This document shows, piece by piece, positions 28,872-57,599 of a stretch of 64,000 nucleotides of DNA. Each line of letters starts with the position of its first letter. The stretch's first letter is position 1. A model generated the notes under the pieces. The model searched no databases, had not been told where the DNA came from, and worked only from the letters and a program-made list of their open reading frames with translations. Both the position numbers and the translations under genes were made by a program. This DNA is from Schmidtea polychroa (lineage: Eukaryota), in contig CM097885.1 of assembly GCA_044892525.1 (NCBI GenBank), forward strand, positions 16,804,001-16,868,000, read 5' to 3'.

Positions 28872-28957
<86 letters not shown>

Positions 28958-30919: not shown

Positions 30920-31013
<94 letters not shown>

Positions 31014-34200: not shown

Positions 34201-35133
34201 AAGGACCTATATTTAAATCGTATATAGACACTAATACGACTTTAAGATCACAGTCTACTAGTGAAATATATAGGGACTTGTTTAAATTATATAATAATAG
34301 CCTGTACGGTAAATCCGTTGAGAATCTCAAAAAACCTATGAATTTGAGGTTGTGTAATTCATCCAAAAAGATGATAATATACTCCTCAAAGCCGACTTTC
34401 AGAAAGTCTATAAGAATCGATGGCGATCTGATAGCCGCACATTTGGAGGACTCAATTTGTTTAGATAGACCTAGCTACATTGGTCAAACAGTACTAGATC
34501 TATCTAAACTGCGGATGTACTAGCTCCAATATATTGATTTGGAGAAGTCAATTCAATTGCATAATAAATATTATAGCCGGTGATACCGATAGTTTCTTTC
34601 TTGAGAATAAAAATTAAAAATTATCAACTTTATTAACTCAGATGATCTCAGATAATTTATTGGATACATCTAATTATGATCCAACACACCCCTTGTATAA
34701 TAGGAACCTTGACTCTGTCATCGGGAAGTTTAAAGATGAGAGCAAGGGATTAGGTTACTCTGAATGGGTTTTCTTACGCCCTAAATGTTATAGTCTTTTA
34801 GGTAGTAAGGAAACAGTGAAAGCAAAGGGGGTAAATTACCTGGGACATCAATAAATCATGAATCTTATTTAAATTGCTTTAATAATAATCAGGTGATTTC
34901 TGTACCACAGACTAGAATAGGTACTAGAAATCACCAACTTTTCACATTTAAAAACTCGAAAAATTGCCCTAAGTAATAACGATGATAAGCGCGCATGGCT
35001 AGGAAAAAACAAAAGTTATGCATTTGGGTTTTATTTAGGAGTTGATGACCTTAGCGAGTATGATGATGAGGAATTCGGTCCAGCTCCAAGTCTCAGTTTC
35101 GATGATAGTTCGTGGGACGAAGATGAAATGTGA
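31267..35133 (+). pseudogene. Polinton A protein-primed DNA polymerase B with an endonuclease-VII-like Zn insert; multiple frameshifts and stops
   Basis: IYADFES, CYLC...NHCHFTGRYVGAACRRCN, FHNLRGYD, FIDS, KGVFPY, YIDINNLYG, KLYNNSLYGK, GDTDS, GKFKDE, LRPKCYS, DDKR. Confidence 0.95.
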
Positions 35134-35364: not shown

Positions 35365-35413
<49 letters not shown>

Positions 35414-35458
35414 TAAAAATATTAATAATAATATCAATAATAATATTAATGAAACTTT

Positions 35459-35491
<33 letters not shown>

Positions 35492-36147
35492 GTAATAATA
35501 ATAATATAATAATAATATTAATAATAATAATATCAATAATAATATTATTGAAACTTTGTAATAATAATAATAATGATGAGATAATTGGCTCATTCGAAAG
35601 GTCTTGGATTGGGCTTTAAAATGAGCTATCGTTGAATAATTTTCGTTGGCGGAAACTCTGTAAATTGAAATTTTAAAATATGACCTTGAAAAAAAATTTG
35701 ACCTTAAAAAAATTTGTCCTTGAAAAAAATGACCTTGAAAAAATTATATTTTTAAAAATAATAATAAAATAGTCAAATGACCTTTAAAATGGTCTCGCGA
35801 AAATGTTAATAACTTTGCCAATATTAATGATGGTGATGATCACTATAGTAGTGGATGTATGGCCTTCGCGGACCCAACCCACCCTAGCCCCCAATGTCAA
35901 ACCCCTTCACATTCAGCCTAAAAAACTAAACTTTTTCATCTTTTAACCCCCTATTTCTACATCTTTTAGTCATAAAACCCTCAAATACACCAATCCAAAA
36001 CCTCACAGATCCAAGCGATCGAAGGGGGAAACATGAAATGGGTCAGCCTCCGTGAAGGCCATACATCCACTACTATAAAAACATAAAAATTTTAAATACT
36101 AGCAAATTGCGCAGTTTGCATACCCAATAAAAAATTTTTTTAAAAAA

Positions 36148-39100
36148 ATGAATATTATCAATTTTCAAATTTTGAATATGTATAATTGTAACATGTGTAA
36201 TAAAAGATTTAAAAATAGAACAGCACTAATATCACATGAAAAATCTAAAGAGCATTTATTAAAGACGGTTGGACTAAATGATTCAAACTCAAAACTTTGT
36301 CCTAAATGTAAACAAAGATATTTACTTTTAGGATATGATAAACATTTTAAAAACTGTAGTGGGATTAAAAGAAATAGAAAAAAATTTGAATGCCCTATAT
36401 GTAGATCAAAATTCACCACAGAATCTTATTATTTAAAACATTTAAAAGAATGTGCTATTGTTAAAAGAGATCCTGAAGACCTTGAAGAAGAAGATATAAA
36501 AGTTAGAGAAGAAGAAAAAGAATATGAAGAAGAAGAGATTGAAAAAGAAAAAAATAATTGGGACAACTTTAACCATGTAGATAAATTTGAACAAACATTT
36601 ATATCCTCTTCATCTTTAGAGTATATAAATAAAAATAAAAAAAACATAAAAAAATCAATGGAAGATGCTATAAAAAAATTTGGTAAATCAAGATTTAATA
36701 TTATTAAATATAAAATTAGAATCCATTCAAGATATTGGAGAGGAGAAGATATAAACACAACACTCTTGGATGCTATAATTGAAACATCTTATGATTATTT
36801 ATTCTCAACCGATGGATTTAATAAAAAAATCAAAGAGATTATTCATAAAGTTGCAGATGAGCATAGAGTGGTTGAACAAGAATTAGGAGAGTCAAACCTA
36901 AAATTCCTTTCATTTCAATCACTTGAAATTGAATATTGGAGAGGAGCACCTCCAAATCCTAAATCATATATCCCTACTCCCTTTACTTCTATTCACATAA
37001 TAAATATTCGAAATAAGGATAATAAATGTTTCCAATGGTCAATCCTTGCACACTTACATCCTCAAGAAAATCATAAAGAAAGACCTGCAAAATATAAGCA
37101 ATATGAAAATGAATTAATATATCCAAAAGGATTTAAACACCCGATGAAGATTGAATACATTCCAATTTTTGAAAAATTAAATAATATTAAACTTAGCATT
37201 TATGAATACATTTGCCAGGTGGGTGATAGGAAACATATTATTCCTATCCATGTTTCAGATAGAGAATTATCAGAACAAGATAGAAATAGAGAAATATATC
37301 TTTTAATATTACAAGAACATAAAAGAGAACAAGTCTATAAGGAATATGATGATCTGGATGAGGAAGAACAATATTTAAATATTGAAGATGATCAAGAAGA
37401 AGACCTTGAAGAGGAAGATGAGGGGAAACAACATTATATTCTAATAAAAAACTTTAAAAGCTTTATGAGATCGAAAAATCACCACAGTGGTGGAACAACA
37501 TGTAAACGGTGTTTATATTATTCAGCTTCAGACATTGCAGAATTTAAACATGAAAGATTATGTTGTAAGAACTTGCCAGCATTAATTAAAATGCCGAGTA
37601 AGGAAAAATCTAACATGCATTTTAAAAACTTTTCAAACCTATTAGAAACAATAGGAGTAATATATGGAGACTTTGAGGCAATTAACATAAAACAGGATTT
37701 AGACCAAGAATATTTAAAAATAATAGAAAAAAATAATTTATTAGACTCTTGGAACCAAAGGACTGAAGGGATCTCCATGAAAAACTTTTTAAAATTAAAT
37801 AATAAATCATACACCATAAAACTAACAAAACAGGTAGCATCAACATATAAATTATTTTTTAAAAGTAATTACCCAGACCTCATAGAATCTGAAGAATTTT
37901 CATTTAGAGGATCCTCAGAAGAAGAAACTCTAAATCATTTTACTAAAGACATAAATGATTTAGAACATAAAATTTTTAAAACTTTAAAAACAAACTTTCC
38001 AATAAATTTTCAGAACAACAATGGGAAGAATATGAAAATTGCACAACTTGCTGGATGTGCAAACGGCTATTTGAGGATCAACTCTTTGAGAATCCTGAAG
38101 GTCTTCCCGAGTCTATTGAAGAAGAAGAACAAAGATTATTTCATCAACAACAAACTCAAAACATAAAAGTTCCTGATCATGACCACTTTAAAAAAGAAAA
38201 TAATTATAGAGGAGCAGCCCATAAGAATTGTAATATAAATTGTAAAAGACCTGCATTTGTACCAGTTATATTTCACAATCTTTTTGGTTATGACATCCAC
38301 CTATTTATAAAATGTCTAGCTGTAAATGCTAAAAATTCCTTTAAAGTCATAGGTTTGACAAAAGAAAAATATAAATGTGTTCAATATGGACGACTAAAAT
38401 TTATAGATTCATTAAACTTTCTATCAATGTCCTTGGATGGAATAGCAAAAACTATGAAACCTGAAGACTTCACCCACACAATTGAAAAAGTATTAGTAAA
38501 AAATAATATTCCCCAGGAGGAATATAAAACCTGTTTGGCAAAAGGAATCTATCCTTATGATTACATCAACTCATTTGATTGTTATAATGAAACATCTTTA
38601 CCCCCTCAAGACTTGTTTTTTTCAATATTAAATCAAACGGATATAAGCGATCAAGAATATGCCCGAGGGAATAAAATGTGGGAACTTTTCAAATGTAAAA
38701 ACATTGGGGATTATACTGACATGTATTTATCCCTTGATGTTTATATCCTTGCAGATTGTTTCGAGGGATTCACAAAAGCCTTTACTCTTAAACCTTATAA
38801 TTATATAACATCTCCATCTTTAGCTTGGGATATATCATTATATACAATGTGGGCCTCTGGAACAGAGTCCATAGAACTATTAACTGAAATCGACATGTTT
38901 AATGTACTTAAAGAAAATATTCGTGGAGGTGTTAGCTCCGTGATGGGAGATAGAAATATAACTGCAAACAACTTTATATCTCTATACAAGAAATTCTTTA
39001 GTGAATATCCTGAAGCAAATGCTATAGAAATAAAAACCGATGAGGATTTAAATTTCATAATGGAAGGTTTAAATAATCCATCAGAGATTATGTATATAGA

Positions 39101-40616
39101 TGCAACAGCTTTATATTCAGGAATAATGACTCAATACCTTCCAATTGATAACTTCATTCAGGTGGATATCCCCACGGAGGCTGATCTCCTAAGAAAACTT
39201 ATGAATGAAATATTATCAACTGAAAAAGATTCAGAAGTGGGATATATAATAGAATGTGATTTAGAATATCCTAATGATATAAAATATGTAACTAGATACT
39301 TTCCATTTGCGCCAGTGAAAAGAAAAGTAGATTCTAATGAATTATCACCCCAACAAGATAGACCTACAACTGTAAAACTTTTATGTGATCAAACTGATAA
39401 AACTTGGTATCTTTGTCATTATAGATTATTACAATTTTATCTTTCACATGGAATGAAAATAAAAAATATACATTCTATAATAAAGTTTAGACAACTTCCA
39501 TTCATGAAAACCTTTATAGAGGGAAATATTAAATCTAGGAATGAAGCAAAAAGAAATGGAAACGCTTTCCTTGATATGATTTATAAACTTTTAAATAATT
39601 CAGTCTTTGGAAAGACAATGGAAAATGTTGACAAATATACTCGTGTAGAATTATTGACAAATAGTTCAAAGGATTTTGCAAGGTATAATCGAATGCTTTC
39701 AAAACCTACATTTAAAAATGCAGAAGTATTCTCAGAGAACCTTGTAGCCGTTGAACTAAAAAATAGTGAAAAGACTTATAACAAACCAATCTTTATAGGC
39801 TTTACCATTTTAGAATTATCAAAACTTCAAATGTATGAAACCTATTATGATATTCTACTACCACATTTTAAAAATAGAATATCTATGCATGCATTGGATA
39901 CCGACAGTATGTTTTTAAAAATATATACTAAAAACCTAAAAGAGGAAATATCTGAAAATGAAATCCTAAGGAATTAAATAAATTCATCAGGAGAATTATT
40001 CACCTTTAAAGATGAAAAGCCAAATACAGCAATAATTGATGCTGTCTTTATTAGATCTAAACAATATTCACTAGAAATGATTGAAGCCCCAAAGATTGAA
40101 ACCCATTCAATTAAAATCATGGATCAAACATTTGATATACCAGTATTAATACCTTCAAAACTTAAAACATCTAAAGATAATAAAAATAAAGGTATACAGA
40201 AATCAGTTTCTAGAACTATACCCCATCAAGACTATAAGGATATTCTAAATAAAAATCAACCAGATAAAATAGTTGAGGTTCATCAACTTAAATCTGAAAA
40301 GCATAACATGTATTTATAAGAATCAAATAAAATATCATTATCTAATTATGATGATAAGAGGTATATTTTATCAGATTTAAAAAAGACACTTCCAATTGGA
40401 AATGATATGATTCCTCATATAAAAAATTTAAAGAACATTTCAGATCTTCAACTGTATGAACTTCGAATACTTTACCCTGAAAGCCGAAATAACTATTTGG
40501 AATTACATCTTGAACAAAATCCTATAAACCTAAATGATTACATCTTAGACGTTAAAACCATATCATCTTCAGTCATCAATGAAGGAAAGTCTCTGGAAGT
40601 CATTCTGAAAGCTTAA
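36148..40616 (+). pseudogene. Polinton B pPolB with three N-terminal zinc fingers and an endo-VII-like insert; frameshift ~38010, stops at 39975 and 40317
   Basis: CNMC..H..H and CPKC/CPIC fingers; IYGDFEA, DHDH...YRGAAHKNCN, FHNLFGYD, KGIYPY, YIDATALYS, KLLNNSVFGKTMEN, LDTDS, FKDE, YDDKR. Confidence 0.95.
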
Positions 40617-41044
40617 AAATGACTGAAATACCCTTAAAATCCATTTTTGAAAACTTAAAGTCTTTAACAGATGACAAAGTATTGATTGATATTATTAAAG
40701 CTTTGAATAAATTAAAAAACAAACCATCTGTTTCAATAATAAAAATTTTTTCTTTTATAGTTATAACATCTTTTTTATTTTCTCTTTTATTTTCTTTTGG
40801 TTTACCTTGGCTAAAGTCTTTCTGGCTTTAATCTCTTTATGGACTTCGTTCAACTGTTGTTTTAGATGATCTCTTTCAATCTCGATATCATTTATAATCC
40901 AAAGTAATACAGGCTCTCGAATGGCAAGTTGCACAGTGAGCAAGGCTTTATCCTCTGAAGATTTCTCATTATATTCTTTTAATGCAAGACTTGATTGCTT
41001 TTTAATAATAGGATTACTTTTTATCAAATTTAAAACACGTTCAT

Positions 41045-41491
41045 TCATTTATTAAAGCTTTTAAACATGATACTAGTTCGATCTAAAATATCTTCAACAT
41101 CTTCAGGTTCAGTTGTAGAGACTCCTGTTCCAGAGGCTAAAGGATCTTTTCTTTGACCTTCGGACCTTTTATATTTCTTAGACTTGATGCATTTATGATT
41201 TTGTTGAAGTACATTAGTTGAACAATCATTACAATAAACACCCTTTTTCTCTATAACCCTCTTCTTTTTATTTGCATGCCTATAAGGAGAATCAATTCCT
41301 AAATCTTTTCTAATTCTTCTCATTGTAGAATCTGAAGTACCAATCATTTTACAAATTTGAGTTTGAGAAAAAGTAGGGTTTTCACTCTTTATTCTAGCAA
41401 ATTCAAAAGCCTTCTCTTTTTGTTGAATCTTATTTAATATTAAAGGATCAATTATTGAAAGTTGTTCAATTTTTTTTATAAAGCCATCCAT
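41045..41491 (-). CDS. Polinton B small helix-turn-helix protein
   Basis: SQTQICKMIGTSDSTMRRIRKDLG HTH-like pattern plus a CxxC..H.C cluster; part of a tightly overlapping run of minus-strand ORFs (40761-41702). Confidence 0.55.
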   Translation of the reverse strand: MDGFIKKIEQLSIIDPLILNKIQQKEKAFEFARIKSENPTFSQTQICKMIGTSDSTMRRIRKDLGIDSPYRHANKKKRVIEKKGVYCNDCSTNVLQQNHKCIKSKKYKRSEGQRKDPLASGTGVSTTEPEDVEDILDRTSIMFKSFNK

Positions 41492-41738
41492 TTATTAGTT
41501 GAGGAAATAAAGCAAAATAATATTCTCCTTTTCCAATTTGGTCTTGTATACTTAAAGATTTAAAGTCATTTATTTTATTTAAATAATCAGGGTCATTAAT
41601 TCCTACAAGATAAAATATATAACACTTTTCACCTATTCTAATTTTATCCTCTAATGATAAACTTCTAAAATCATTCAATCTAGATTTCATTATTTCTTCC
41701 ATTTTTTAAATTAAAAATTATACAGGTCTTACGAAGTC

Positions 41739-42287
41739 TTACGTCGAAGTCTTTAACCATTTCTCTTGTTGTATTTTTTTAGAATATTCATCACCTTTAA
41801 CCTTTGTAGTTTTCAACTTTATAACTTCATTTTTAATATCCCTTATTATTTGATTTGATTTCATTATTTCTTCATCTGTTAGGATTCCATCTTCCAAGGC
41901 TTTTAATTGAAATAAAAATAATTTTGATATCCCCAAGTCGATTGTCAAACAAACTTCACGATATAAACTTTTCTTTTTTGAAGTATAAGATAAAGAAAGT
42001 ATTTCAGTCAAGAAAGAATCTGCAACAGAAATACTTCCAAGTATTACGGGTGCAAGAGTAACAACTGGTAAAGTTATAGGTAAAACAATTGTAAGTATTG
42101 CAGATGAAAATCATAAGGAGTAACCTATAATCTTTAAAGCTGTATTCCCTTTATTCCATCTTTTTTTAATTTTTTTATAATGCTTCAGTAAGTCTTGTAA
42201 ATGTAAAGTTTCTGATTTAAATTCTTTCACTCTCATGACTTCAAGTTCTGTAGGAGCTGATGGAATCTTTGGATATCTTGTTTCCAT
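41739..42287 (-). pseudogene. Polinton B membrane protein with a central hydrophobic hairpin; one internal stop (42111-42113)
   Basis: METRYPKIPSAPTE...ALKIIGYSL*FSSAILTIVLPITLPVVTLAPVILGSISVA...KALEDGILTDEEI read in one frame. Confidence 0.65.
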
Positions 42288-42295
42288 TTTAATAA

Positions 42296-43144
42296 TTAAA
42301 AAAATAAGACTTTATTATTTGGTACCAACGCTCGCATATCATAAGAAACTCTTTTTGAGAGAATGTCTTTATACAATTCTATCAACGCTTTACGAACTTC
42401 ATCAACATCAACCTTTTTTTCATAAAATATTAAATCTATATATTGTACAAGTGTGCTTTTAAAAATAATATTCTTACTTTTAACTTTATGTGTTTTATGT
42501 GAATCAGTTTTGTCATGCCAATGTCCATGTGGTAAATCATAACCAGTTATTATAACGTCATTCTTTTCAAACTTACTATTATAATCACATTTTACAAACC
42601 ATTTCATTGTTTCACCATCATCATTAAATAAAAAGAAATAAGGATCAATAATCTTTACAACCATAAAACAAGACCATTCTTTACTATTTGTAATTATTAA
42701 AGTTGGTTCTATAAAATGTTTATATCTATTGGGTAATAATGTATTATTCTGTTCTAATTCAGCAGCTCTTTTTCTAATAGTGTGTGTTGTGTTAATGTGT
42801 GTTGTATGAGACTCTAATTTAACAAGTCTTACATTAAATGATGTAATCATCTCATTTATTATATTATATATTGTATTAATTTTATTATCCATAAGTTGTT
42901 TATTAAGCTTGGATTCTATAGAATTACTCGATTTAGGAAACTTAAGCTTTTCATCTACATATTTTTTATTAGCTGCATCAAAATCATTAATTGGAGAAGA
43001 TAATTCTTTTATCTTGTGTCCATTTAAACTTAAATCACCCTTCATTGAATCTCCTTTTTCATTAACAAATCTTTTTTCTGTAAGAGCTATAACATCTTCA
43101 TCTTTTAATCCATCATTATATAATCCTAATTTATTATAATTCAT
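42296..43144 (-). CDS. Putative fibre/spike-like protein of Polinton B
   Basis: Intact 282 aa; GDSMKGDLSLNGHKIKELSSP..DFDAANKKYVD motif typical of trimeric fibre/adhesin shafts, then coiled coil and a beta-rich head; directly downstream of the penton. Confidence 0.6.
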   Translation of the reverse strand: MNYNKLGLYNDGLKDEDVIALTEKRFVNEKGDSMKGDLSLNGHKIKELSSPINDFDAANKKYVDEKLKFPKSSNSIESKLNKQLMDNKINTIYNIINEMITSFNVRLVKLESHTTHINTTHTIRKRAAELEQNNTLLPNRYKHFIEPTLIITNSKEWSCFMVVKIIDPYFFLFNDDGETMKWFVKCDYNSKFEKNDVIITGYDLPHGHWHDKTDSHKTHKVKSKNIIFKSTLVQYIDLIFYEKKVDVDEVRKALIELYKDILSKRVSYDMRALVPNNKVLFF

Positions 43145-43146
43145 TT

Positions 43147-43899
43147 TTATAGTAATAATCTAACTTGTTTCAAATGTAAACACAATGAAATCTTTTCTCC
43201 ATTAAAATTAATCAATTTCCCATTTTCATCAACAATTTTAAAACTAATACTCATCAAGTTTTTTCTACATAAAGGTAAATAGTTTGGAGGATTCATTCTT
43301 TCAACCATTTTATATCCAACTCGAACATTAGAAGGAAAGGAATATAAAATATTTGCATGTTTACCATTATTATATGAACCCGTTATACAATCACACTCTA
43401 TATTTATAGAATTTGTATTTGTTATTTGAATAATATTTTTAGATTTAATAGGTGACTCACCACTATTATATTTTTTAACTTCAAAACCTAAAATAGTATG
43501 AAAGAAACTAGAAGCTTCAATATTAAGTCCAATATTTTTTTTTAAAGTCATAATATATTTTGAAGTTGGAAAATCTACTTTTATTTCTATATTTCCATTT
43601 GTTTCTTTTAAAATTGTTTTAGCTAAATCCATTAATTCATATGCTCCTGGTTCAATTGTTGTACCCGTGTATACACCAAAGCCCTCCTCCTCATTATCTT
43701 GCTTCTTATATACAGTAAAGTTATTATTATTATTATTTATATTAAAAATAGTATTAAAACAGCTAAACCACAAGAGTGCTAATTCATAATTTAAATTTTG
43801 ATCTAAATTTATTGAATCTTCAAAATTTATAGTAAAATCTGATTCATTTGAATTTACTAATAAACTTCTTGAATATTTATCTGACATTATGTTTACCAT
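43147..43899 (-). CDS. Polinton B minor capsid (penton-like) protein
   Basis: IEPGAYEL, INIECDCITGSYNNG...ILYSF, YLPL...ISFKIVDENGKLINFNGEKISLCLHLK. Confidence 0.85.
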   Translation of the reverse strand: MVNIMSDKYSRSLLVNSNESDFTINFEDSINLDQNLNYELALLWFSCFNTIFNINNNNNNFTVYKKQDNEEEGFGVYTGTTIEPGAYELMDLAKTILKETNGNIEIKVDFPTSKYIMTLKKNIGLNIEASSFFHTILGFEVKKYNSGESPIKSKNIIQITNTNSINIECDCITGSYNNGKHANILYSFPSNVRVGYKMVERMNPPNYLPLCRKNLMSISFKIVDENGKLINFNGEKISLCLHLKQVRLLL

Positions 43900-43921
43900 T
43901 TTTTAAAATTATCTTCCATTT

Positions 43922-44311
43922 TTATAATAGAGGTTTTAGATCATTATAAATTTCTTGGATTATAGATTCAAAGCCCTCTCCTTTGGACACATTCAATCTA
44001 TACAAAACATATAAACTTAAAATACCACATATTTTAGTATTATTAGGTTGAACTTGTAAAGAATTAAAGGTGTAGCCTTTTTCAAGATAGTCTTCTACTT
44101 CTTTATTAGGTTTAATCCCAAAAGAATCAAAGTATATAGATTTATTATATATACAAACCCAATGAGATCCTTTTTCATTTGAATCTTGATAATTGATTAT
44201 TATATTATCCTTTAGTCCTTTCAGACTTGACAATTCATCATTCATTAATATTTTAATTTTTAAATTTAAATAATCTGCATAATCTTTTAAATCAAAATTT
44301 GTTTTTTACAT
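43922..44311 (-). pseudogene. Adenain-like cysteine maturation protease (stop at codon 2; downstream 107 aa open)
   Basis: IINYQD...GSHWVC, YFDSFG, QVQ...ICG catalytic H-D-Q-C pattern. Confidence 0.9.
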
Positions 44312-44352
44312 TTATTCCAAATGTTTTTAAAAAATCTAATATCTTCGGAGGA

Positions 44353-45168
44353 CTAGTCATTTGTATATTTATTAAATTTATCTTTTGAAATTATTCCTTG
44401 TTTAAATAAATCTTTTGAAATCTTTAAAATATCAGAATTTAAATTATTATGTCCTGCTTTTTTAGCAGCTAATAGTTTTCTCAATTCTATAAACTTAGAG
44501 ATTGGATCTATCCCCTCACCCTCTTTAACAATATAACCCCTTTCATTTTTATTTAAATAATTCTTTAAATCTTGAATATGTTTTGCTTTTGGACTACCTC
44601 TTATTAATTTTATAAAATTTAAATATTTTTCAATTTCTTTAATATCATCTGAAGGATATCCACAAATTAATCTATAAAAATCATCTGTAAATTCAAAGTC
44701 TAAATATTCATAATTATAAACATTTTGTGAATGAATATGTGATTTATTTTCTGGAGTTATATATAAAGTAAAGTTTTGTTTATTAATTGTTATAATTTGA
44801 TATCCTTCAGGATTAATATTAAATATAGGTTTAATTGTTTCACTTAAACCCTCTCTAATTTTAGGATCAACTTTAAGAGGTTTTGTTTTTAAAAACATTT
44901 CTTCTTCTTCTACACTTGAGAGTTTTCTACGTTTTCTTTGATTCCTTTAAGTTGGTCCTTCTATGGCTTTAATACTTGGATTCTCTATAGTTTTAGGCTT
45001 TATGGCTTCTATAGCTTTAATTATTGGTTGTTGTTGTTGTGTCATTTCTTCATTTGCTGTTATAGATTCACTATGTTGGGTTATATCTTTTATATCATAC
45101 TTGTCTTGTTCTGATTGTAATTTTTTTAAAAGTGCTAATCTTTCTTCATATACCATTTTATATACCAT
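44353..45168 (-). pseudogene. Polinton B uncharacterised protein (in-frame stop at 44947)
   Basis: Two track ORFs lie in the same frame; C-terminal LRKLLAAKKAGHNN...I...L...GII resembles a recurrent Polinton motif. Confidence 0.55.
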
Positions 45169-45172
45169 CAAT

Positions 45173-45730
45173 TTACCATTCTTCTTCTTCTTCTTCAGAT
45201 TCTGATTCAACAAGTTGTAAATATAAACCTTTACCATTTTTAAGTTTACAAAGGCATCCTTTCTTCAAAGATTTACACATTTTTTTAAAATCATCTTTAT
45301 CTTTTGATGATAAAGATTCAGATGTTGAAATTTGATTTTTTAAAAAATCATTTAAACCTCTGCCTTTATATGGATCAAGATAGAGACCTTTGCCCTGATA
45401 TGGATTGAGATAGAGACCTTTTCCTTTAGCTTGCCCTACCTTCATTTTCTCGATTTCAGTTTGTAGTTTTTCTTTTTCAAGGTCTGTCTTTTGAGATTCT
45501 TTAGCTTTTTGAACTGTAGTTGCAATTCCTCCAGCTATTCCAGCAGCACCTGATAAAGCAGCAATGATTGCAGGTATTAAAGCAGCTAATGGAAGAATGC
45601 CACCTTCTCTAATACGTTCTTTAACTTGTTCTTTTACATGTTTTCCAATAAAATATTTTTTACCATCAATTACTACTGATTTATTTTTATTTGAATTTAT
45701 TAATTCTTGTAAAGATTCTTCAGTTGTCAT
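45173..45730 (-). CDS. pX-like core/membrane-active precursor
   Basis: REGGILPLAALIPAIIAALSGAAGIAG resembles the adenovirus pX tail; repeated GKGLYL motifs. Confidence 0.7.
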   Translation of the reverse strand: MTTEESLQELINSNKNKSVVIDGKKYFIGKHVKEQVKERIREGGILPLAALIPAIIAALSGAAGIAGGIATTVQKAKESQKTDLEKEKLQTEIEKMKVGQAKGKGLYLNPYQGKGLYLDPYKGRGLNDFLKNQISTSESLSSKDKDDFKKMCKSLKKGCLCKLKNGKGLYLQLVESESEEEEEEW

Positions 45731-45746
45731 TTTATAATAAATAAAA

Positions 45747-46505
45747 ATGGATATTTGGAAACCAATTTTAAATCGACACAAGAGTAAATTTAATAATAAA
45801 TTATTTCCTGATAATTTTAGATTATTAATCGTTGGGTCTTCAGGATGTGGTAAGAATGTACTTCTTTTGAGAATATTACTAGAAGAAGGTTTTTTAGATT
45901 ATAATAATTTAATCTTTTATTCTACAACCATAAATCAACCAGAGTTACAACTTTTGAAATGTGGATTTGAAAATAAATTAACTAAAAAAGTTATAATTGA
46001 TATTTTTAAAAATCAACATAGATGTCCTGACGAGGTTTTTCAACCTTGTGATATGATTGATTGGTATAAGGAAAAGATTTTAGAATCAGATATTGATAAT
46101 AAAAGTGATTACATTTCTGAAAATGAACCTGAAGATGTTTTACATTGTGATTTACTTCCTAAAGATGTAAAGAATCTAGTTATATTTGATGATGTTGTCA
46201 ATATGAAAAACCAAGAGATTCAAAAGAGTTACTTTACACGAGGTCGACATAATAATTGTAATGTTATTTATATATCTCAAACCTATTATGCTTTGGATAA
46301 AAACTCTATAAGAAATAATTCTAATTGTTTTATATTTTTTAAATTAGAAAAGCGTGATAAGAATATGATTTATAGTGATTTATTTTCAAATGTTGAACCT
46401 GATAAGCAAATGTTTGATATGTTTGTTGATAATCATTGGAAAGAAAAATATAATTATATTTATTTGGATAGAGAAGAAACTGAAATATGGAAATGTTTAT
46501 TTTAG
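45747..46505 (+). CDS. Polinton B packaging ATPase
   Basis: GSSGCGKN Walker A variant, LVIFDD, FTRGRHNNCNVIYISQTY, SIRNN. Confidence 0.92.
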   Translation: MDIWKPILNRHKSKFNNKLFPDNFRLLIVGSSGCGKNVLLLRILLEEGFLDYNNLIFYSTTINQPELQLLKCGFENKLTKKVIIDIFKNQHRCPDEVFQPCDMIDWYKEKILESDIDNKSDYISENEPEDVLHCDLLPKDVKNLVIFDDVVNMKNQEIQKSYFTRGRHNNCNVIYISQTYYALDKNSIRNNSNCFIFFKLEKRDKNMIYSDLFSNVEPDKQMFDMFVDNHWKEKYNYIYLDREETEIWKCLF

Positions 46506-46516
46506 AGCTTGTCGAC

Positions 46517-47867
46517 TTAGAAATCTGTTTTCTGTAGTTCATTATTATAAAATCTACCTAATATTTTTTCATTATTTAAATCAATGATGCTATATGTTAT
46601 TGGAATTGTATAATGTATTTTATTTATAATAAAAATTTCATTTGTCCATTTTGCTGTGAATCCTTTTTCAAATTTATTTTTATATTTAAATATTCTTACT
46701 CGGTCACCAATTTTAAACTTTGGTTTTTCATTTACCACTTTAACGGTTTCAGGATTTATAAGTTTTAAAGGATTCAAGGAAGCATTTAAAGGTGTTGATT
46801 TTATAGAACTATGTACATCATTATTATATTCATTTACAATCTTTTGTAACAATTCATTGTTCCATTTTTGTTTTCCAATAGCAGTAAAATATTTCCACAT
46901 TTTATTTTTTAATGTTCTATTTAATCTTTCAACTACGACTGCTTTTCCTTCGTTTTCTGTTGAATATAATTTAATATCATTTTCATTTAAAAACTTTGTT
47001 ATAAAATTCTGTTCTTTTATCACACCATAAATATTTTGGAATTCTTTGATGTTCTTCAAATATATTTTCAAATGCTTCTGTAATTGAATATCCTGTTTTG
47101 CTTTCTAAACATCTTGCAAAAGCAAATCTTGTATATAAATCTATTACTGTTAAAATTATTTTATATTTTTCAGGGTCTGATGATTTTGTTGGCATAAAGA
47201 CTAAATCTGCAGACCATGTTTGATCTTTTTCATGTACTTGAACTTTTAAATATTTTTTATTTTTTCTAAATTCATAGTGAAATTCGTTGGCATATTTTAT
47301 TTGTGATTCTGTTGGGAATAATAAACTAGTCTTGGATGCACTCTCGAGTTGATTCTCAATCTCTGCTTGTTGAATAATCTTTTTATTAGCAACATCTTTT
47401 GCTATTCTAGGGTGTCCGGCTCCAAAGAAGATCTTACCTTTCATTGCTAATTTAACTAGAGCTCTTTGAATCTTTTCTTGGGTTGATGGGTTTTGAATAC
47501 TATTTAAATCATGTATTAAATTAACATCTGCAAGATGTCTATCCCTAAGGTCTTGAGAATAATAAGCAATATCATGTTTTAAAGCTGCTTGATCAATTCT
47601 ATTCACTGGTTCTTCTCCGGGTTTGGGATTATTATTTTCATCAAGTCTAATATCTAGACGTGTTCCTGGTCCAGTATAGTTGTGATGGAATAAATGTCTT
47701 TCACTTGGATATTTTTCAGTAGTAAAGGGTTTTAATATTGAAGATGTTTTTTTGAAGATTGTAGGTCACCACCAACTCGAGATGTATGTTTTTTTAGTTT
47801 TAACATGACTTGCTTTATGATGTTTTCTAACTTGACAATTACAAATTTCACATTTCCAATAAGACAT
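46517..47867 (-). pseudogene. Zn finger - parvovirus-type PLA2 - rve integrase gene; disrupted near 47766 and ~46990
   Basis: CEICNC...H...; NYTGPGT...PVNRIDQAALKHDIAY; WSADL, VIDLYTRFA, LWCDKRTEFYN; KAVVVERLNRTLK; FKIGDRVRI; GRFYNNELQ; no chromodomain. Confidence 0.9.
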
Positions 47868-47883
47868 TTTTAAAAGTTAAAAA

Positions 47884-49155
47884 CTATGAATCGCCTCGTA
47901 CATTTTCAATTATTGAAATCTTTCCACCATATAATTTCATTTCTATTTTCTTTTCTTCTAATATTAATGTATATATTTTTGCCTTAAAATTAGAATCCTT
48001 TGTTATATGAAGAGTAACATCAACATTATTTATAGCTAGACGATCATCTTGATCTGATACATTTATACAAAATATAGAATATAAATTTTTGAAATCTTCT
48101 AAACTTAATTGTGGTTCAACTTTAAAATCATAACATGTTTCAATATAATTTAGATATGGAAATATGTTTTCATTATTTTCAATATTAAATTCCATTCTAT
48201 TTATTGGATAATAAGAACTATTTAATTGAATTTGTATTGATTTTAAATTATCATCTCCAATCTTTTGAATAAACAAGTTGTTATTTTTTTGGAAAGATGA
48301 ATCTACTTCTTTGAATCCAATAAAGATATATCTCGGTCGGTATGCTAAATTTGCTACCTTTATAGAATATGTTGAACCCTCTGTCATACTAAATTCACTA
48401 CAGACTCTATTTAAATAATTTACATTTATAGATTTGTTGGAATTTAATCTTTTAAGGAGTTTGATTTCAGATTGAGGATTTTAAGTCCATTCAGGTATAT
48501 GTAATTCAAGTGTTGATAATTTTAATTTAGCTTTTGTATCCTTGTCTCCATAGAACAATCTTTTATCACCTTCTATTCTATTACAGGTTAATTCTATAAA
48601 AACATTATGAAGTATACGGTTATAGTTTTGAAGGAATCCAAATAAGTGTTTTAATTCAAAATAACCTTCAAATTTTTTAGATTTATAAAGTTCAACTCTT
48701 TTATAGTATCCAAAATTTACATCTAAACCATCTTTATCTAAATCCCCTTCATTAACATCAGGAATCCAACCTGTTAATTCACCATATTCATTTTTATAAT
48801 CACAACCAGTTAAAATAAAATTTAACATTGTAGAATATACTCCTGGATGTAAAACAGTTTCAATTTCTGATGATCCTAGTTTTAATCTCATGTTGGAGAA
48901 TAAATTTGGAAAGAAATTATTTTCTAGGGTTATATCTTTGTTTGCTTCAATTTCTAATTCAATTTTATAATATAATTTAGCATTACAAATATCTATTGGG
49001 TTTGATGTTTGAAGAGATTGAAAAACTATATCAGCCCTACGATTTAAGTTTGCGATAGATCCCGAGGTTGGAGAGATTTTTAAAACATCAATTTTTTTAA
49101 TTTCATGCATAAATTCTTTATTATAATCAAGATTTAATTTATTTTTATTAGCCAT
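47884..49155 (-). pseudogene. Polinton B major capsid protein (double jelly roll), frameshift ~48480
   Basis: ~420 codons; LENNFFPNLFSNMRLKLGSSEIE, LKHLFGF..Y.RIL, RPRYIFIGF, IQIQLNSSYYP, FKNLYSIFCINVS. Confidence 0.8.
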
Positions 49156-49259
49156 TTTTTATATTACTAAATTAGAAATTGCGCAGCTTGCTAGTTTTTA
49201 AGATTTAAAATTTTTAGAATTTTATAAATATAAAATTTTAAAAAATGACAAAAATCCGA

Positions 49260-49341
49260 ACCCTAATAGCGCAGTGGGAATAGACTGGCACAGTGGTTCA
49301 AATGGATAGTGGTTCAAATCCCAACTGACATTATTTTTTTT
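49260..49341 (+). ncRNA. Candidate Pol III small RNA 1 (not a foldable tRNA)
   Basis: A boxes TAGCGCAGTGG (49267) and TGGCACAGTGG (49286), B box GGTTCAAATCCC (49311), T8 terminator 49334-49341. Confidence 0.55.
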
Positions 49342-49412
49342 CAACATAAAATAATATTAAAAATTTGAAAATAATTTTGAAAATAGTGTGTGAAAAAAAA
49401 AATTATTGAAAC

Positions 49413-49506
49413 GGGTATGGTGGCGAACCGGTAATTATCGCCACCAGTCTTTCGAACACACCCCGGATCGATCCCATAATGTGCACATTTATTTCTCAGT
49501 TGTTTT
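49413..49506 (+). ncRNA. Candidate Pol III small RNA 2
   Basis: A-box-like TGGCGAACCGG (49421), B-box-like GGATCGATCCC (49465), 9-bp stem TGGTGGCGA/TCGCCACCA. Confidence 0.35.
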
Positions 49507-50077
49507 CGGACCTCTTTCGGATTCGCTTTCGAATTCATTTGTACTTTCGAGCAGCACGCTTAAAACCGAGAAGCGAATAATAAGGTGTGCTGCTATTATC
49601 AAATTGATTCTGATGTATGAGTCTGGCCAGCTTGTATATTGGAAGAGATTTGATAAACGAAAGAGGTTGAAATTGATCCGGATCAAAAAAACTGTTGAGA
49701 GGACATTGAAAAAAAAAAAACAAATACCACTGTCCCCTCAGAGCAGTTTTACTATTTCATAAATTTTTTTATTCTTCAAGGCATCAAGATTAAGATTTAA
49801 AATTTTTATAGTTTTTTATAGTAGTGGACGTAACGGACGTAACCTTTTTCCGCGGTTCCCTGTCAAGGGGATGGGGGGATTACAGATTTGGGTTGGTAAA
49901 TTAGGGGTTTTTATGAATAAAAGATGTAAAAATAAAGGGTTAAAAAGATGAAAAGGTTTAAAATTTATTAGGTTTTGAGACGGGCGTCCGAGGGTGGGTT
50001 GGGTCCGTGAAGGCCATACTACTCACTATAGCTCATTTGAAAGGCCTTGCACTAAACTTTAAAATAAGTTATCGATC

Positions 50078-53000
50078 TGGTGTGTTACAAGTAATCTAAA
50101 GTTTCCAGCGTAACCCAGAATACAATTGACAGCTGACCACTTGATACCCGTTGAGCAATCAACGTTGGTACTGTATCAAGGGTTTGAGTACTAGCAAAAA
50201 TTGAGCATGCTTAGCATACTATAATTGTCTAGTACCCACTGGGGTTCACGGACTGCCGATAGAAGGCTTATGTCCGATTTTTTTAGGTCCCCGTTACGAC
50301 AATTAACGTTATTGAAAAATCAGAAGACCCGAACGCTAACATAACAACAATTTTATTCGGATCGCACAATTCGCATCGGAGTTCATTATATCCTGGTAGA
50401 CTCCTTCGGGGTTGTCACTAGTAGTGTCGTTGAAATGGTATTTGGGCCAGACTGGCTTGTCTTATCTTAGCCTGTGCAGCATTGCCCGGCCGAATCTTTT
50501 TCCTGGGGGGAATTGAAGGTACGCACTCCTTCGGCTCGTGGAGTAATTCGCTCATAGGTCGAATCTTGGAGATTACCTCTTGATCGATGGCCTGTTGATG
50601 TATCCTGGTCTCCAGCTCCTTCACCCTCAGATGGAGAGCCCGCAACTCGACCTGGTCCTGAGCGCTCTGCAATTTTTATTTAAAAACAAAACACTTCTTC
50701 TTCATGGTACTGGCGACAATGCCATCTGGGAGCTTCTGGTATGATGTGGACGAGCTGAAAACATGCCACAGAGAACTAAATGACACCAAGGGATTTCGAA
50801 ACATTTGAATGTCAAAATATCGTAGAATTGAACTGTGGGAACCACAATGAGGATTTTGTGAGATTTAAATTGATGCAAGGATGAAATATTAAACGAAAAT
50901 GATTGAAGATAATGAGTCATCATTCCCGAAATCCAGATGACATGGTCGCTAGGTGAATTTTCATTTATCGATCTATTTTATTTATGCATTTATTTCGTGC
51001 TGATTTTCATTGGATTGAAGTGAATTGGGTCGATTTGTCCCTCATGACGATACAAGAGTAGTGGGCAGAAATGCGTACTATTCTTGGGTGAGTCGTGAGG
51101 GGTGAAGAAACTCTGTGATGAATGGTAGGGATAGAACACGATAATGACTTCATTGAGTGCGATCGATAGGATCTTTCTCCATAATTTCCATCATCAGAAC
51201 ATGAATTTCCAACAGCTTTGAAGTTAAATTGAATAGATTCCACGAGAAACATGATTTGCACTGTAATTGATAGAACATCTCGTCTTGGCATTTTTGACAA
51301 CCAGTATAGATCTGAATGATTCTTTTCTTGCGAAACATGACTGTTAGAGAATTCAGCCGGAGGTATTGTTAGCAATTGTAATTCACAAGTAGTTCCAACA
51401 CCTTTCGTAGCAAACTTCATGTTTCTGAGACATTTCCGAGAAATAAAGCATCTCGAGTGCATTAGCGACTAAACCCGTGTGTTCATCTATCTGCAGGTCC
51501 AGAGCAGACTCGGTAATCGATTCCTTGACAGGCGACTATCTCCGATAACGAGCCCATCTAGACAGAAATCTCAATATTTTCTGATAATTAACAAAAATAT
51601 TTACCGTAGTCATGAGGAAAACTGCTGTCGGCAACTTCACGAGATATCTTACTTCAGTTTTATCTTGCCCGGGAAATAACTGTAGCCTACTGATAAATAG
51701 TTTCCGAGAAAACATCCAGCGAACGGATTACTGAGTGTCTACCATTGTATAGATGAGATTGCCAATATTTATTGAGGATAAACACTGGCTGAGAAAATCT
51801 TAGACTTAGAATAAACCTCCAAAAGATAAAGCGATAAGTAACGTCAACAATTAGGGAAATCGCGCATCCAGACCATTCATCAGGCAAAAATTCTATCCGT
51901 CGTAAAAATCAAATCATGGTGAGAGGCGCAGGATAAATCATGCACAGCAGCACACGCAGACAAATTTGCCAAATCCTAGCATAGTAGGTGTGCCAGTTTC
52001 GTCATCATGTTGAGGTGAAGCAAGTTATTTCCAGCTTGCATGCACAGGATAGACGATGTTGTTACGGCATAATTAAACGTAGTTGAGATCTCCCTGACAT
52101 TTTCGACGATAATGATTATAATAATTTTATTTTCATCCCTTTCCGTGTATTATAATGTTAAGTGCGTTGAGAGAATTTTTTAACACATTTACCATATAGA
52201 ATGAATAACCATGAATAAGATACATAATGAATTAAATCAAATATAGTTAGAAGTCAGTGACGATAAAGAATAAATGCAAGAATATCTATATATGAAATTT
52301 ATGAATATAATAAAATACTGATTGTCAACCTAAAATATACATATTAGTGATAATATCGACAATGGATTTGATACTTCTCGTTTTCTTTTGGGTTGCATGA
52401 ATTTAGTTGATTGAGGGTAACTGTTGAATGGCTGCGAGGGGTTGAAATCTGTTGAATGACTGCGAGGGGTTGAAATCTGCCGAGGGTCGCAGGGGAGAAC
52501 GGCCGACGATACTACGCAAACCTTAGTTGATCTGTAAATGATACATAAACGATTGCTACCGATTTTTATAGGGATGTTTCTTTAACTTTAGATGACCGTA
52601 CCTACCAGCTCTAGAAAGGATCTTCGTCCGTGTTTTTCTTGTTCCGACAAGAATGAGGACATCAAGAAGTTACATGTCTGTATAAGGGCTTTGAAAAAAC
52701 GTATTGACCTATACGAAGGCACGTGGTTCTCCCCGCCACAGATGAAGGAAGAACGTAATAAAGTCTTGCGTCTGGAGCACTGTCGCGACAGCCTCCTCGA
52801 AGAGAGTAGATGCCAGCGGCTAACCATTAAAGCCCAATCAGAGGCACTACACAAAGTATATACCGAAGCAGAAGTCGCGAAACGCGTCCGAGAATACCCC
52901 ATTCAGGACGGGACCAACGTCTTCCCGGTCCATCACCAGGCATATGGGGCCTCAACATCGTCGACCAGCCGCCCCTTCTCGCACCAGTTCTTTCGGACAC

Positions 53001-56000
53001 TAGGCCAATGACCACTGGTCCGTCGTACCCTATCCTAGCTCCCATCCTTCTTCCTCAGAGTGTCCAGCCTTCCACAGAAGTTGCATCGTCGATCCGGAAG
53101 CGTAAGAGGCCTACGCGTTCCGAGAAAAATCAGAAGCGTCGAAACGCTATCGCGACGTTGGAAGCCTCGCTGTCAGTAGCACATTCAAAGATACAGGAAA
53201 TCACAGCTTCCCACTGGGTATTTGTGATTATGATCCGTGTCTTACTTAAACTCTATTTGTGTATTTTGTTTATGTCTATTACTTACTTGGCGAATTTAAT
53301 ATAATTTTGTCTGTGTTTAGCCTGTTGGTTTGAGATTATTATGTAGTTCATATGAGTTGAATGATCGTCTGGCAATGCAACCGACTGATAGAAGTCGTCC
53401 CCTTGGACCAGGGTCGTACCAAATTTTATGTATGAATACGGGTAAGTCCTTCTATGGCATCTTAGAACCCGAACAGCGAGTCCTAAGATAGGGGCTCACC
53501 TGTTAGCGGACTCCGACCCATGTACGCAGAACCAGAGTGTAACATCACCACGGGCACACATGCGGGAAATTGACAAGATCATCTTGGATATGCCGGGAGT
53601 GTACACTGAGCGGGTTAGAACGATTGTATCCTATTTTTAATTTTCTTCCTCCCCGGATATCCAACAATACTTTGAACCTCGCAAAATAGAGACGGGTAAA
53701 AAAAGAAAAATTGAAATCCCAAACTTTTGTTTATTTATTCCAAAATTGATTTCACAATTATATTAATTAATCGATATTTTAAATATGTTTATATTTATCT
53801 CATTTCCTTTGGCTTTTGTTATCAGTCCTTAGAGAAAATAATGCCACTCAGACCCCCAATGGGAGGGGTATTGCTATGCGTCTTGGATCTGTATCTGGTC
53901 CCTAGCAATTCCCAACCGTTGTGGTAGTGGGTGGCTCCATCGTCAGCAGTTATAACAAGTAATTTCTTTTGTAATTTTAACATGGTTTGGTTTTAGAAGT
54001 TGCAATCTATTGGATACACTGCTTTATTAGAATTGCTCAGTTAATTAATCGTTATTATGTTATGCTATGGACTAATCCTGGTGTGATTTTGTTGATTCCT
54101 GTATCAAGGTAATTTGTTAGGTGATTATAGTAATCTTGCCATCTAAATTAATTGATGAATTTACACAGTCCGAAAATGTTGACTCGTTATCGTGTCAAGG
54201 TGGTGCATATAGAATTAAATCATTTACAGAAGTGCTATAGTTTTAACAGGCAGACAATTCATTAAATAAATCAGGGGTATTTTTACCAACCCAAAATCAT
54301 CGTAGGTGTAACAGCAGGCCGAACAATTAGAATGATCCGGCGATAAGTGATATTGATAACGATCTCTATACGTGGAATTTTATTTATTGACTAATTCATG
54401 TAGAAATACTGTTGCCCTATTCGTGTGAGTTATCACGTCACTACCTGGTGTGTGTATGTGGTGTGCGACTAGTTCTACTGCATGGGGGTCAATATCGGTT
54501 AAATCAACTGGTGATAGTGTGAGGTGTTTCGGCAGCTATGAATTGATGTTTCCAGCGTGGGAGTTAGTATTCTAGTGTGCTGCTTTCATTATGCTTAGAT
54601 GTGAATTCTCATAATTCAATTCAATTGTCAAATCTGAATGTTGCTCCCTCATCAAATCGGAATTATCATATGCCCTTTTCTCAGTGCTATTTTTTAATAT
54701 TATCTGTATTTTGATTCTTGCAGGATGTTCATCCACAGGATATTTCACCCTCGCAATTGCAATGGTAGAACCTTCTATTGACAATTCGTGGAAAATCTCG
54801 ACGTTTATTGGATTCTTATTAAAATGCTTCAAAGCTTAATGGAAAAATACTTCGACACAGTTCTTAGTCTGTGTGCTTGTTGTGATAGTAGGTATTTTGT
54901 GATATCGTTTTCATGCAATAAAACTATATTCATGTGTTATTTTATAACTAAGTTATTTTTAATGGTGTTCTTAAATTATTTCTAATGTAAGACATTTACG
55001 AAGAATGGACTTAAGCTGAACTTAAGCAGTGGATGAGATAGCATTTGTGAAGTTTGATGACGAAAATTACAAGAATGACTTGGAGTGGGATTAGAGTATG
55101 CCTAATATGATGATGATAATCAGAAAAGAATTTACGAACTTTTATGTAGATTTTTCGACAAAACGGATGACCTAAATTTAGTCAAGATAGTACTAATATG
55201 ACGATTGTGTGACATCCCCAATCACTGTGCGAATTCTCTAACGAACTTTCCACCTTTTATACGATTAAACTCTAAATAAGTGTTACTTTCCCAGAATATC
55301 ACTCGTGAATTTTATGTGCATCTTCAGCGACGGACCCGTGAGGAAGCCCCCACATTTCGGCCCGAATCAGCTGCGTGATTGAAATGTTCCATACCCACCG
55401 GCTGAGCACCCGAAGGCCCCTAACACCATGGTAAGAAACATTTCAACTCCACGTTTCTCATAAATTTTAATGAAGCCATAAAATATAAGAATATAAATTA
55501 AAAAAATTATCGACTATTACTACACTATTTAAACTATCTTAACCATAGAAAATTCATTATTACTATTCATATTACGGTAAATTAAATCAAAATGAAGAGA
55601 AAGAAGTTTAATTACATTAAATTTTACTCGAAATAGGTTACATATCGAAATTTAGTTATTCATATAATAATGCTGAATAAAACTTTACAGAAATGTTTTC
55701 CAAAGGTTTTCAGTCAAAAGTTTGATCCGCGGGCTGAGTTGAATGATCGATCTACCTCGTGCTAAATTGATTGTGAAAGTGATTTATTACTAGATTGTCG
55801 TATCTCGAAATTCCTATCTGTGAATTGGCTCTCTAAATGGTTAGATTTTTTAACACTGAAATTTTGATTTCAGTGTTTGACTTATATACTAATTTCCTAT
55901 ATGTGCGGACCAATCAGAATTGAGTACCGCTTAATTATTTAATTTTGATGTTTCTTAGTTGCTTTTCTTATTTTTTCCTTATTTTTATTATATTTTTTAT

Positions 56001-56298
56001 TTATTTCTTTAATTTTCTTATTAATTACTGGGTTTTGTATTATTTTATTTATTATTGTAGTTTTTCCTTATCTTAATTTCTTATTTTTATTCTTTGTTTT
56101 AATTCTCATTTCTTAATTTATTATTTCTTTTGTATACTGAATCTTGTTTATTTTTAAATTTTTGTTTATTTTTATTTATCTATAATCATGCTTATCTTAT
56201 TTCCCTAATTTCTTGTTTCAACTCAGCCCAACACTATGTACCTACGCACCTTAGTCACAATTAGAGTTTTGGGTCTAGAAATCAGTTCTAGCCCAACA
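50078..56298. mobile_element. 6.2-kb TG...CA insertion with a 4-bp TSD; probably an LTR-retroelement derivative (giant solo LTR or non-autonomous element)
   Basis: GATC at 50074-50077 and 56299-56302; removing it restores the TIR sequence TATCGATCGATGAAAT; no gag/pol motifs seen. Confidence 0.75.
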
Positions 56299-57169
56299 GA
56301 TCGATGAAATAAAATTATGGCACTTAATAATATTTTTGAAAAATAATAATAAAAATAATATTTTTTGAAAAATAATAATATGACCTTGATAAGTCATCGC
56401 AATGAGTCATATTACCTTGGGAATGATCCTGGATGAGTCATGCGACCTTGAAAATGACCTTGATGAGTCATTGTTTAAACGATCTTGAAAAAAATTTGAC
56501 CTTGATAAGTCATGGTCGTTGTTTAAATTACCTTGAAAAGTTTGATGAGTCATCGAATGAGCCATGGGCTTTGTTTCAATGACCTTGATGAGTTATATGT
56601 CTTTGTTTAAAATTTGACATTGAAAATTTTCTACCGGGGGGGGTGTGCTAGCGGTGCCCAATCCATCTACTAGCAGGGAATCAAGTTTTCAAATCATAAA
56701 GACGAGCACATCATCAGAAAATGAATTTTGACGTTCACCAAAGCAATAATCCGCTTCACAGACAAAGTACAGAACAAATATTGAGATACGGTAAATGTAT
56801 TGTTTATGATGGAAACGCAAACAGCATTGAGGGACACGTATTTTTCTATCATCCAATCTCTCACAGCCGAAGAACAGTATGAACAATAAAGTGAAAAAAG
56901 AGGCCAGTGGGGAGCAAGACATCAACTAGATAAAATAACGCCAAAAAAACCAAAAGTGACAAAGACAAGAACAATAGATGAAGATCAAGCAATAATAATA
57001 CGAAAGGCAAGAGAAAGCATTTATCCTTAGATCAACCGAGATAAAGGTTTTTTCTGTTAGTCCTCGTCTTAAGTGTTTGCTTAATATAAATAATCGTTCA
57101 GGTAAAACAAATTTTAAAATTTAGTTTATGAATAAATCGTTTCATAGACCCAATGGCTTGTTATTAAAT

Positions 57170-57466
57170 CATTCATTTGTCATAATTGGAGCGATATTAA
57201 ACAGATTAACCGTAAAGATTGGAAGACCAGCGTTATTGTTTATTGGAAGATTTTTTATTGGCATTAATTTTGGAATAACAATTGGTCTATTTCGATATCT
57301 CACTAAAATTGGTCCAACGAAGAGTCGTAGGGCAATTGGTTTTTGCCACAAGTTGGCAGTTACTTTTGGTATAGTGGTAAGTTACTCGTTAACAACGACA
57401 AACTTCGAACACGGATATTTTTTCGGCATGTTGCATGTCCGTGTACAGCTATTATTACAGCATTAG
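57170..57466 (+). pseudogene. GLUT/SLC2-type sugar transporter fragment
   Basis: LLFIGRFFIGINFGITIG..YLTKIGPTKSRRAIGFCHKLAVTFGIVVS matches TM4-5 with a deletion. Confidence 0.7.
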
Positions 57467-57599
57467 GTAACACAATAAAACTTTTATTTTTCGGTCTGCC
57501 AGACATGGTCTTTATTTGTTAATAAGATTTATTTTAACAACCGACGCTGACCTAGTTTATGAATTAAAAAAAATGATTATACACATATATATGGAAGCT

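Follow-up and report, generated by a model that had tools for sequence, protein, structure and literature searches.

We analysed a stretch of 64,000 nucleotides of the Schmidtea polychroa genome (assembly GCA_044892525.1, contig CM097885.1, positions 16,804,001 to 16,868,000 of the forward strand; hereafter the window), and found a Polinton-derived element, Polinton A, whose right terminal inverted repeat (TIR) is cut in the assembly into three pieces by a second Polinton, B, and by a further element, C. Polinton A spans 24,835-56,671 and measures 11,429 bp after removal of B and C. Its left TIR (24,835-25,571, plus strand) starts with AGTAGA, runs for about 737 bp up to a TTA/TA microsatellite, and holds a motif array and both empty target sites described below. 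In a masked self-comparison, the left arm of the inverted repeat begins at 24,835, and the right arm falls in 35,578-35,848, in 50,024-50,077 and in a segment reaching up to 56,671. The right TIR, all on the minus strand, consists of an inner piece (35,578-35,846) that finishes in the first CACTAT copy, a middle piece (50,024-50,077) made up of CACTAT, 44 bp and GATC, and an outer piece (56,299-56,671) running from the second GATC copy to the terminal TCTACT.

Both junctions are marked by exact target-site duplications (TSDs). Polinton B (35,847-50,023, 14,177 bp) has AGTAGT...ACTACT ends bounded by CACTAT at 35,841-35,846 and 50,024-50,029. Element C (50,078-56,298, 6,221 bp) begins with TG, ends with CA, and is bounded by GATC at 50,074-50,077 and 56,299-56,302, so that its start lies 54 bp from the right end of B. 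Aligned separately to the left TIR, the inner piece matched at 334 of 365 ungapped columns (91.5%), the middle piece at 47 of 54 (87.0%) and the outer piece at 319 of 357 (89.4%), and the three are collinear with the left TIR across both insertion sites. Each empty target occurs there once, ATAGTG at 25,335-25,340 and GATC at 25,287-25,290 (TIR positions about 501-506 and 453-456), with a spacing of 44 bp. As a paralogue that differs by about 10% and by several indels, the left TIR is a control and not a true empty allele; it still fixes both boundaries.

These observations bear out the initial annotation, which had described two independent insertions about 50 bp apart in one TIR and had taken the left TIR as the empty site for both. 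The nesting is real in the assembly: B and C are two independent insertions in one TIR of A, and A preceded both, while the locus does not show which of B and C arrived first. An alternative boundary of C with a 6-bp duplication is disfavoured on two grounds: the empty site would then fall short of the left TIR by 4 bp, and a second copy of the C end also stops at CA (14,422). With 49,000-57,000 as the query, 6 of the 7 listed sequencing runs contained part of it, four at a share of 0.76-0.78, which come from three samples of one study and are possibly the source of the assembly, and two at 0.23. C makes up 0.78 of this query and the rest 0.22, a split that would fit presence or absence of C, although a sequence divergence of about 5% would yield a share of about 0.2 as well; the shares do not bear on the junctions and were not used as evidence.

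Polinton A shows the Polinton/Maverick features of TIRs, polymerase B, integrase and ATPase. Its protein-primed DNA polymerase B (31,832-35,121, plus strand) has, when compared with intact homologues, four frame changes and 1-5 C-terminal stops. The rve integrase with chromodomain (28,572-29,629, plus strand) is interrupted by a TAT microsatellite at 28,873-28,957. The packaging-type ATPase (27,244-27,795, plus strand) matches Pox_A32 (E = 4e-7), and a TBP-like short open reading frame (ORF) at 26,706-26,996 (minus strand) matches PF00352 (E = 2.7e-10). A gene split between two frames (29,521-30,578, plus strand), probably for the minor capsid (penton) protein, has no Pfam match; it resembles the B ORF at 43,147-43,899 (E = 1.5e-4), and its name is putative. 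For major capsid and protease, a Pfam scan of 13 A ORFs found no match, and tblastn with the B proteins gave E = 0.39 or worse. Because of the polymerase frame changes and stops, the broken integrase and the lack of a capsid or protease match, we conclude that A is an internally deleted, dead, Polinton-derived copy and not an intact member. It also differs from known Polintons in its AGTAGA ends, its TBP-like gene and the absence of an exact TSD.

We found no exact duplication of at least 5 bp within 8 bp of either end of A. The left flank AACGGG (24,829-24,834) and the right flank AGCAGG (56,672-56,677) match at 4 of 6 bases, and both differences are transitions. Random flanks would match at 4 or more of 6 bases with a probability of 0.067, and a true 6-bp TSD would carry at least two mismatches with a probability of 0.006-0.11 at 2-10% divergence. 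The two TIRs of A differ by 9-13%, whereas the stop count suggests about 0.7-4% decay per copy. We read the missing exact TSD as the mark of a decayed or chimeric copy. With two mismatches in the 6-bp flanks and no exact duplication nearby, the two ends may derive from different copies, a serious minority possibility.

Two sequence features of A were observed besides its genes. A TATAAAC box lies upstream of the ATPase and of the ORF at 27,889 (2 of the 5 upstream regions inspected). Long TAA microsatellites occur at the inner edge of both TIRs (25,572-25,684 and 35,365-35,577), inside the integrase (28,873-28,957), and at 30,920-31,011 between the capsid-side genes and the polymerase.

The (AGT)2 and (ACT)2 ends and exact 6-bp TSD of Polinton B are the combination described for Mavericks (PMC8097293). 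Both A and B are decayed, as are 96% of the vertebrate loci in that study (PMC8097293). Along with TIRs, B carries polymerase B (PF03175), integrase (PF00665), ATPase (PF04665) and major capsid (PF21738), the integrase scoring 30.7 bits, under the cut-off of 32.6. The DNA polymerase B with N-terminal zinc fingers (36,148-40,460, plus strand) has one frame change and two in-frame stops; in a set of 746 long homologues, the two best share 49-51% identity with it. The packaging ATPase (45,747-46,505, plus strand) matches Pox_A32 (E = 4.5e-10), and one in-frame stop splits the double-jelly-roll major capsid gene (47,884-49,155, minus strand). The rve integrase region (46,517-47,765, minus strand) occupies two frames, with a parvovirus-type phospholipase A2-like domain ahead of the integrase; this PF08398 domain (46,986-47,765, minus strand) is in frame with the integrase start. 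For protease, minor capsid, PZ and PW, B has ORFs of fitting size and with motifs, none with a convincing Pfam match. The ORF at 43,147-43,899 is the one akin to the probable minor capsid gene of A, and the ORF at 43,922-44,245 (minus strand), in which His, Asp, Gln and Cys motifs were seen by eye, is a probable protease that we take to be adenain-like, a family name without a supporting Pfam match.

Translated matches between A and B are mostly 27-52% identical, and their DNA similarity comes down to two AT-rich matches of 31-38 bp. On sequence comparison A and B are different Polinton families, as had been proposed. With the polymerases of A and B as queries, no confirmed locus was found in viral contigs. 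B is less decayed than A, as nesting requires, and the single frame change in its polymerase against four in that of A is consistent with the nesting order. The CpG observed/expected ratio is 0.44 in B, against 0.91-1.07 in the A interior, C and the flanks.

The ends of B are unusual for a Polinton. The TIRs (about 250 bp, with many indels) are only 83-87% alike despite young-looking genes, the identity being 214/259 or 213/246 matched columns as set by the gap costs. They differ at 13-17% of aligned columns, which exceeds the difference between the A TIRs although B is younger. The 3-5 stops in 2,843 codons imply a decay of about 0.6-1.5% (upper bound 3.5%), and a decay of 8.5% would predict 29-45 stops. 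Because the TIR divergence exceeds the decay implied by the stops, the ends of B were probably unlike each other at insertion, or were later exchanged with other copies.

A further difference from known Polintons is that an inverted copy of the terminus recurs farther in at each end of B. At the left end (35,847-36,074, plus strand) the first 26 bases pair with this copy in a predicted hairpin (z = -6.1) whose 26-bp stem was equalled by 0 of 200 shuffles, and the right end (49,820-50,023) carries a decayed equivalent. Over the TIR regions 35,847-36,110 and 49,790-50,023, the right terminus lacks 6 bp that the left terminus has. A motif common to both ends occurs at 36,098 and 49,195, and at the right end it is parted from the TIR by a 573-bp stretch between perfect 19-bp direct repeats (49,198-49,808). 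This stretch contains what we take to be A-box-like and B-box-like words with a T run (49,262-49,345) and a hairpin at 49,405-49,480 (z = -2.4), and it may be either a third insertion or an RNA polymerase III-like unit of B. No transfer RNA (tRNA) gene was found in the window, and the tRNA-like stretch 49,262-49,345 folds no better than shuffles (z = 0.37). Rfam over 49,000-56,300 gave one sub-threshold small nucleolar RNA match, at 24 bits against a cut-off of 50, which was taken as chance.

Element C differs in composition from its surroundings, with a GC content of 37.8% compared to 27-30%. Its ends form degenerate 24-bp inverted repeats (15 of 24 matches); after the TG, 13 of 22 positions match, and 1 of 763 control positions was as good. 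C has no paired long terminal repeats (LTRs) or long TIR, and no internal direct repeat beyond one 28-bp tandem. Among its 15 ORFs of at least 70 aa, the 5 longest-looking matched 0 Pfam families, gag, pol and transposase included. The second copy of the right end of C covers 34 bp at 94% identity and stops at the same CA at 14,422, within a diverged copy at 14,226-14,422 whose other end was not found. C-related remnants at 14.2-14.4 kb and 60.3-60.5 kb lie outside A and are diverged kin. The end motif of C had 0 matches in metagenome contigs.

LTRs are recognised by TG...CA ends, a short TSD and short imperfect symmetry of the ends. C has all three and contains no gag/pol match and no second LTR. 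Because of its TG...CA ends, 4-bp TSD and end symmetry, the lack of a gag, pol or transposase match, and a size within the range of Ogre LTRs, C is probably a giant solo LTR; a giant Gypsy-like parent is the best fit, one we hold somewhat more firmly than not. Ogre LTRs measure 1.9-6.5 kb, and Burro elements exceed 30 kb with up to 25 kb internal sequence (PMC6431247). The ends, TSD and length of C resemble those of solo LTRs of such elements by description, not by sequence, and unlike them C contains an ORF of an unnamed family; the planarian Burro/GYPSM1 carries accessory ORFs (PMC6431247). Our literature search found no paper on Gypsy solo LTRs in planarian Schmidtea.

Two other classes were considered for C and rejected. 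Ginger elements share TG...CA ends, a 4-bp TSD and a fitting length (about 2.6-7 kb), and have 40-270-bp TIRs, TGTNR at both ends, CCGG/CCGT or RTATAY targets and a transposase (PMC2836005). C lacks the defining TIRs and transposase: its ends match at 15 of 24 positions, its left end reads TGGTG instead of TGTNR, its target is different, and no transposase was detected; C shows no Ginger feature of this kind at its left end or in its interior. Ngaro retrotransposons nest in EMALE virophages (PMC8547959) and other retroelements nest in cryptophyte Polinton-like viruses (PMC12220804), and in both cases, as here, a GC-richer element of about 6 kb sits inside an AT-rich integrated Polinton-like element. 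Solo repeats occur inside EMALEs too (PMC8547959). C differs from Ngaro in its 4-bp TSD, its TG...CA ends, the lack of a reverse transcriptase or recombinase match and the absence of split repeats.

C encodes a 139-aa ORF (52,592-53,011, plus strand) with a predicted helical product, a member of an unnamed repeat-borne family; the counterpart of the Arg-rich tail of its homologues lies in another frame at 52,831-53,304. Ten homologues were found among 1.84 billion proteins (E = 1e-8 to 1e-5). In 8 of the 10 the domain is fused to an unrelated host domain, different each time, suggesting that the repeat was swept into gene models. The family alignment is highly variable and includes a GTW..P motif, and several homologues end in an arginine-rich run, one of them with a weak REV match (E = 0.0013). 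The predicted model has three helices, with a predicted template-modelling score (pTM) of 0.36. A decayed homologue lies outside A at 60,304-60,526. Of six candidates in a word-based protein search none held, Atlas matches were uninformative, and the single PDB match (E = 0.25) was disregarded. A stretch of about 60 bp containing CCAAT is weakly common to the left flank of A (24,621-24,683, minus strand) and the right end of C (55,884-55,945). The left flank of A was also considered as part of a C-like LTR, and this was rejected, the score being 111 against a shuffle maximum of 116.

Several features surround the nest. An adenylate kinase 6 gene, a single ORF (22,950-23,471, minus strand), starts about 1.35 kb from the left end of A, and a 71-bp piece of its coding sequence is duplicated upstream at 23,982-24,052 (97%). 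Just to the right of A, GC-richer DNA (57,125-57,990) contains pieces, lacking introns, of a sugar transporter and of a TRAF MATH domain; A may have inserted into a retroelement that carried them as cargo. Further to the left lie an element of 768 bp (21,025-21,792), whose inverted ends are long and whose termini are TTAA-like, around a short ORF remnant (21,319-21,615), and a 13-bp tandem array of about 29 copies (20,422-20,801). The remnant has no Pfam match, and we take it to resemble a GIY-YIG tail.

To explain the closeness of B and C, we favour chance in a transposon-crowded genome, that is, ordinary nesting by three separate integrase reactions, as the probable account. Following the established behaviour of integrases, which leave 6-bp and 4-bp staggered cuts, the course of events would be as follows. 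After its integration, Polinton A would have been stripped of its capsid and protease genes and have decayed. A Polinton integrase would later have inserted B through a 6-bp staggered cut, duplicating CACTAT, and separately an LTR-type integrase would have inserted the parent of C at the palindrome ATCGATCGAT through a 4-bp cut, duplicating GATC. Recombination between the two long LTRs of this parent would then have left one 6.2-kb LTR between the GATC copies. Where Polintons and LTR elements crowd the genome, as here, insertions into dead elements would cost nothing.

We evaluated chance with a model of uniform insertion, applied to the window collapsed to 43.6 kb. The share of windows with some pair no more than 50 bp apart was 3.5% at 6 insertions, 9.9% at 10, 21.8% at 15 and 35.9% at 20; a rough count gave about 10 insert-like pieces in the window. 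Across 31 windows of this genome, such a pair was expected somewhere with a probability of 0.67-1.00, and among 100 A-like copies with two inserts each with a probability of 0.58. Several points weigh against chance and the ordinary course set out above. The model assumes uniform insertion, and it takes a rough number of insertions. If two insertions land uniformly in the 11.4-kb A, they come within 50 bp of each other with p = 0.009. No TSD-flanked insertion was noticed in the 9.6-kb interior of A, for which no dedicated search was made. Both target sites lie in a gap of the left TIR (25,157-25,395) between an outer and an inner motif cluster that is free of the three motifs counted. The flanks of A are not an exact TSD, and a full-length two-LTR parent of C was not seen.

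The motif array raises a second explanation, also offered by the initial annotation, in which the A TIR is a hotspot of accessible chromatin. Here host factors of the bZIP and nuclear-receptor types would bind the TIR, which would act as enhancer or promoter, and its open motif-free linker would be favoured by unrelated integrases. The 737-bp left TIR contains TGACTCA 9 times, as many times as the 62.6 kb elsewhere, and TCAAGGTCA 7 times, against 0 times elsewhere; we take these motifs to be AP-1 and NR5A-type (nuclear-receptor-like) sites. The TIR of A thus appears enhancer-like in its make-up, and this part of the earlier proposal is supported. The position of both targets in the motif-free gap, the within-element probability and the nearby start of the intact-looking adenylate kinase 6 ORF also favour accessible chromatin. 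However, the locus is single and was picked after the fact, the motif names are our assumption and factor binding is putative, and the left TIR, which is closer to the host gene, carries no insertion. Moreover, planarian SMEDWI-2 keeps transposon-rich loci targeted by PIWI-interacting RNAs closed, with Polintons among the most affected (PMC8532177). The hotspot itself is not supported by this one locus, and an open-chromatin preference, while second to chance, seems unlikely to us.

Still less probable is that one insertion drew the other, the promoter or hairpin of a B end or the LTR enhancer of a C end having opened the adjacent DNA regardless of A. The short distance from B to C fits this, as do the hairpins of the B ends and their shared upstream motif, but the locus does not fix which of the two came first.

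It had also been suggested that B-family Polintons preferentially target other Polintons or their TIRs, and this claim is not supported here. B does sit in an A TIR, and there is a precedent, since 91% of type 1 Ngaros lie inside EMALEs (PMC8547959). That preference was shown over 80 elements, whereas here n = 1, with one copy of B and one complete copy of C, and homology-guided targeting has no basis because A and B share almost no DNA similarity. Targeting by B would also leave C unexplained. Our literature search, which left most subscription papers outside, found no report of Polintons targeting Polinton TIRs or inserting into another Maverick. Family-specific targeting by B is very improbable. 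Equally improbable is that the arrangement is partly a product of assembly or recombination, with A ends from different A-family copies or mis-joined junctions: the imperfect flanks and the excess of TIR divergence over decay in A would fit, but mis-joining would not yield two exact TSDs whose removal restores the order of the left TIR, and a chimeric A would still leave the double insertion intact.

Taken together, the double nesting in the TIR of Polinton A is a clean case in which nested elements come with their own empty-site control, and its closeness is best read as chance. A bolder picture, which we regard as speculative and improbable as a whole, would have host factors bind the A-family TIR as an enhancer, with unrelated integrases all landing in its linker free of motifs. 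The outer 370 bp and the terminus stay intact, so the 31.8-kb composite of A, B and C could be copied as one, and C would be the 6.2-kb solo LTR of an undescribed giant retroelement; the small helical protein encoded within this LTR would have relatives with an arginine-rich, Rev-like tail. Two features of the locus are possibly worth more than the nesting, namely C with its unnamed ORF family and the ends of B, probably unlike each other at insertion. If insertions proved to be enriched in A-family TIRs genome-wide, this would give the first handle on Polinton target choice in an animal, and would indicate that the ends of Polintons work as open regulatory DNA in which other elements collect.

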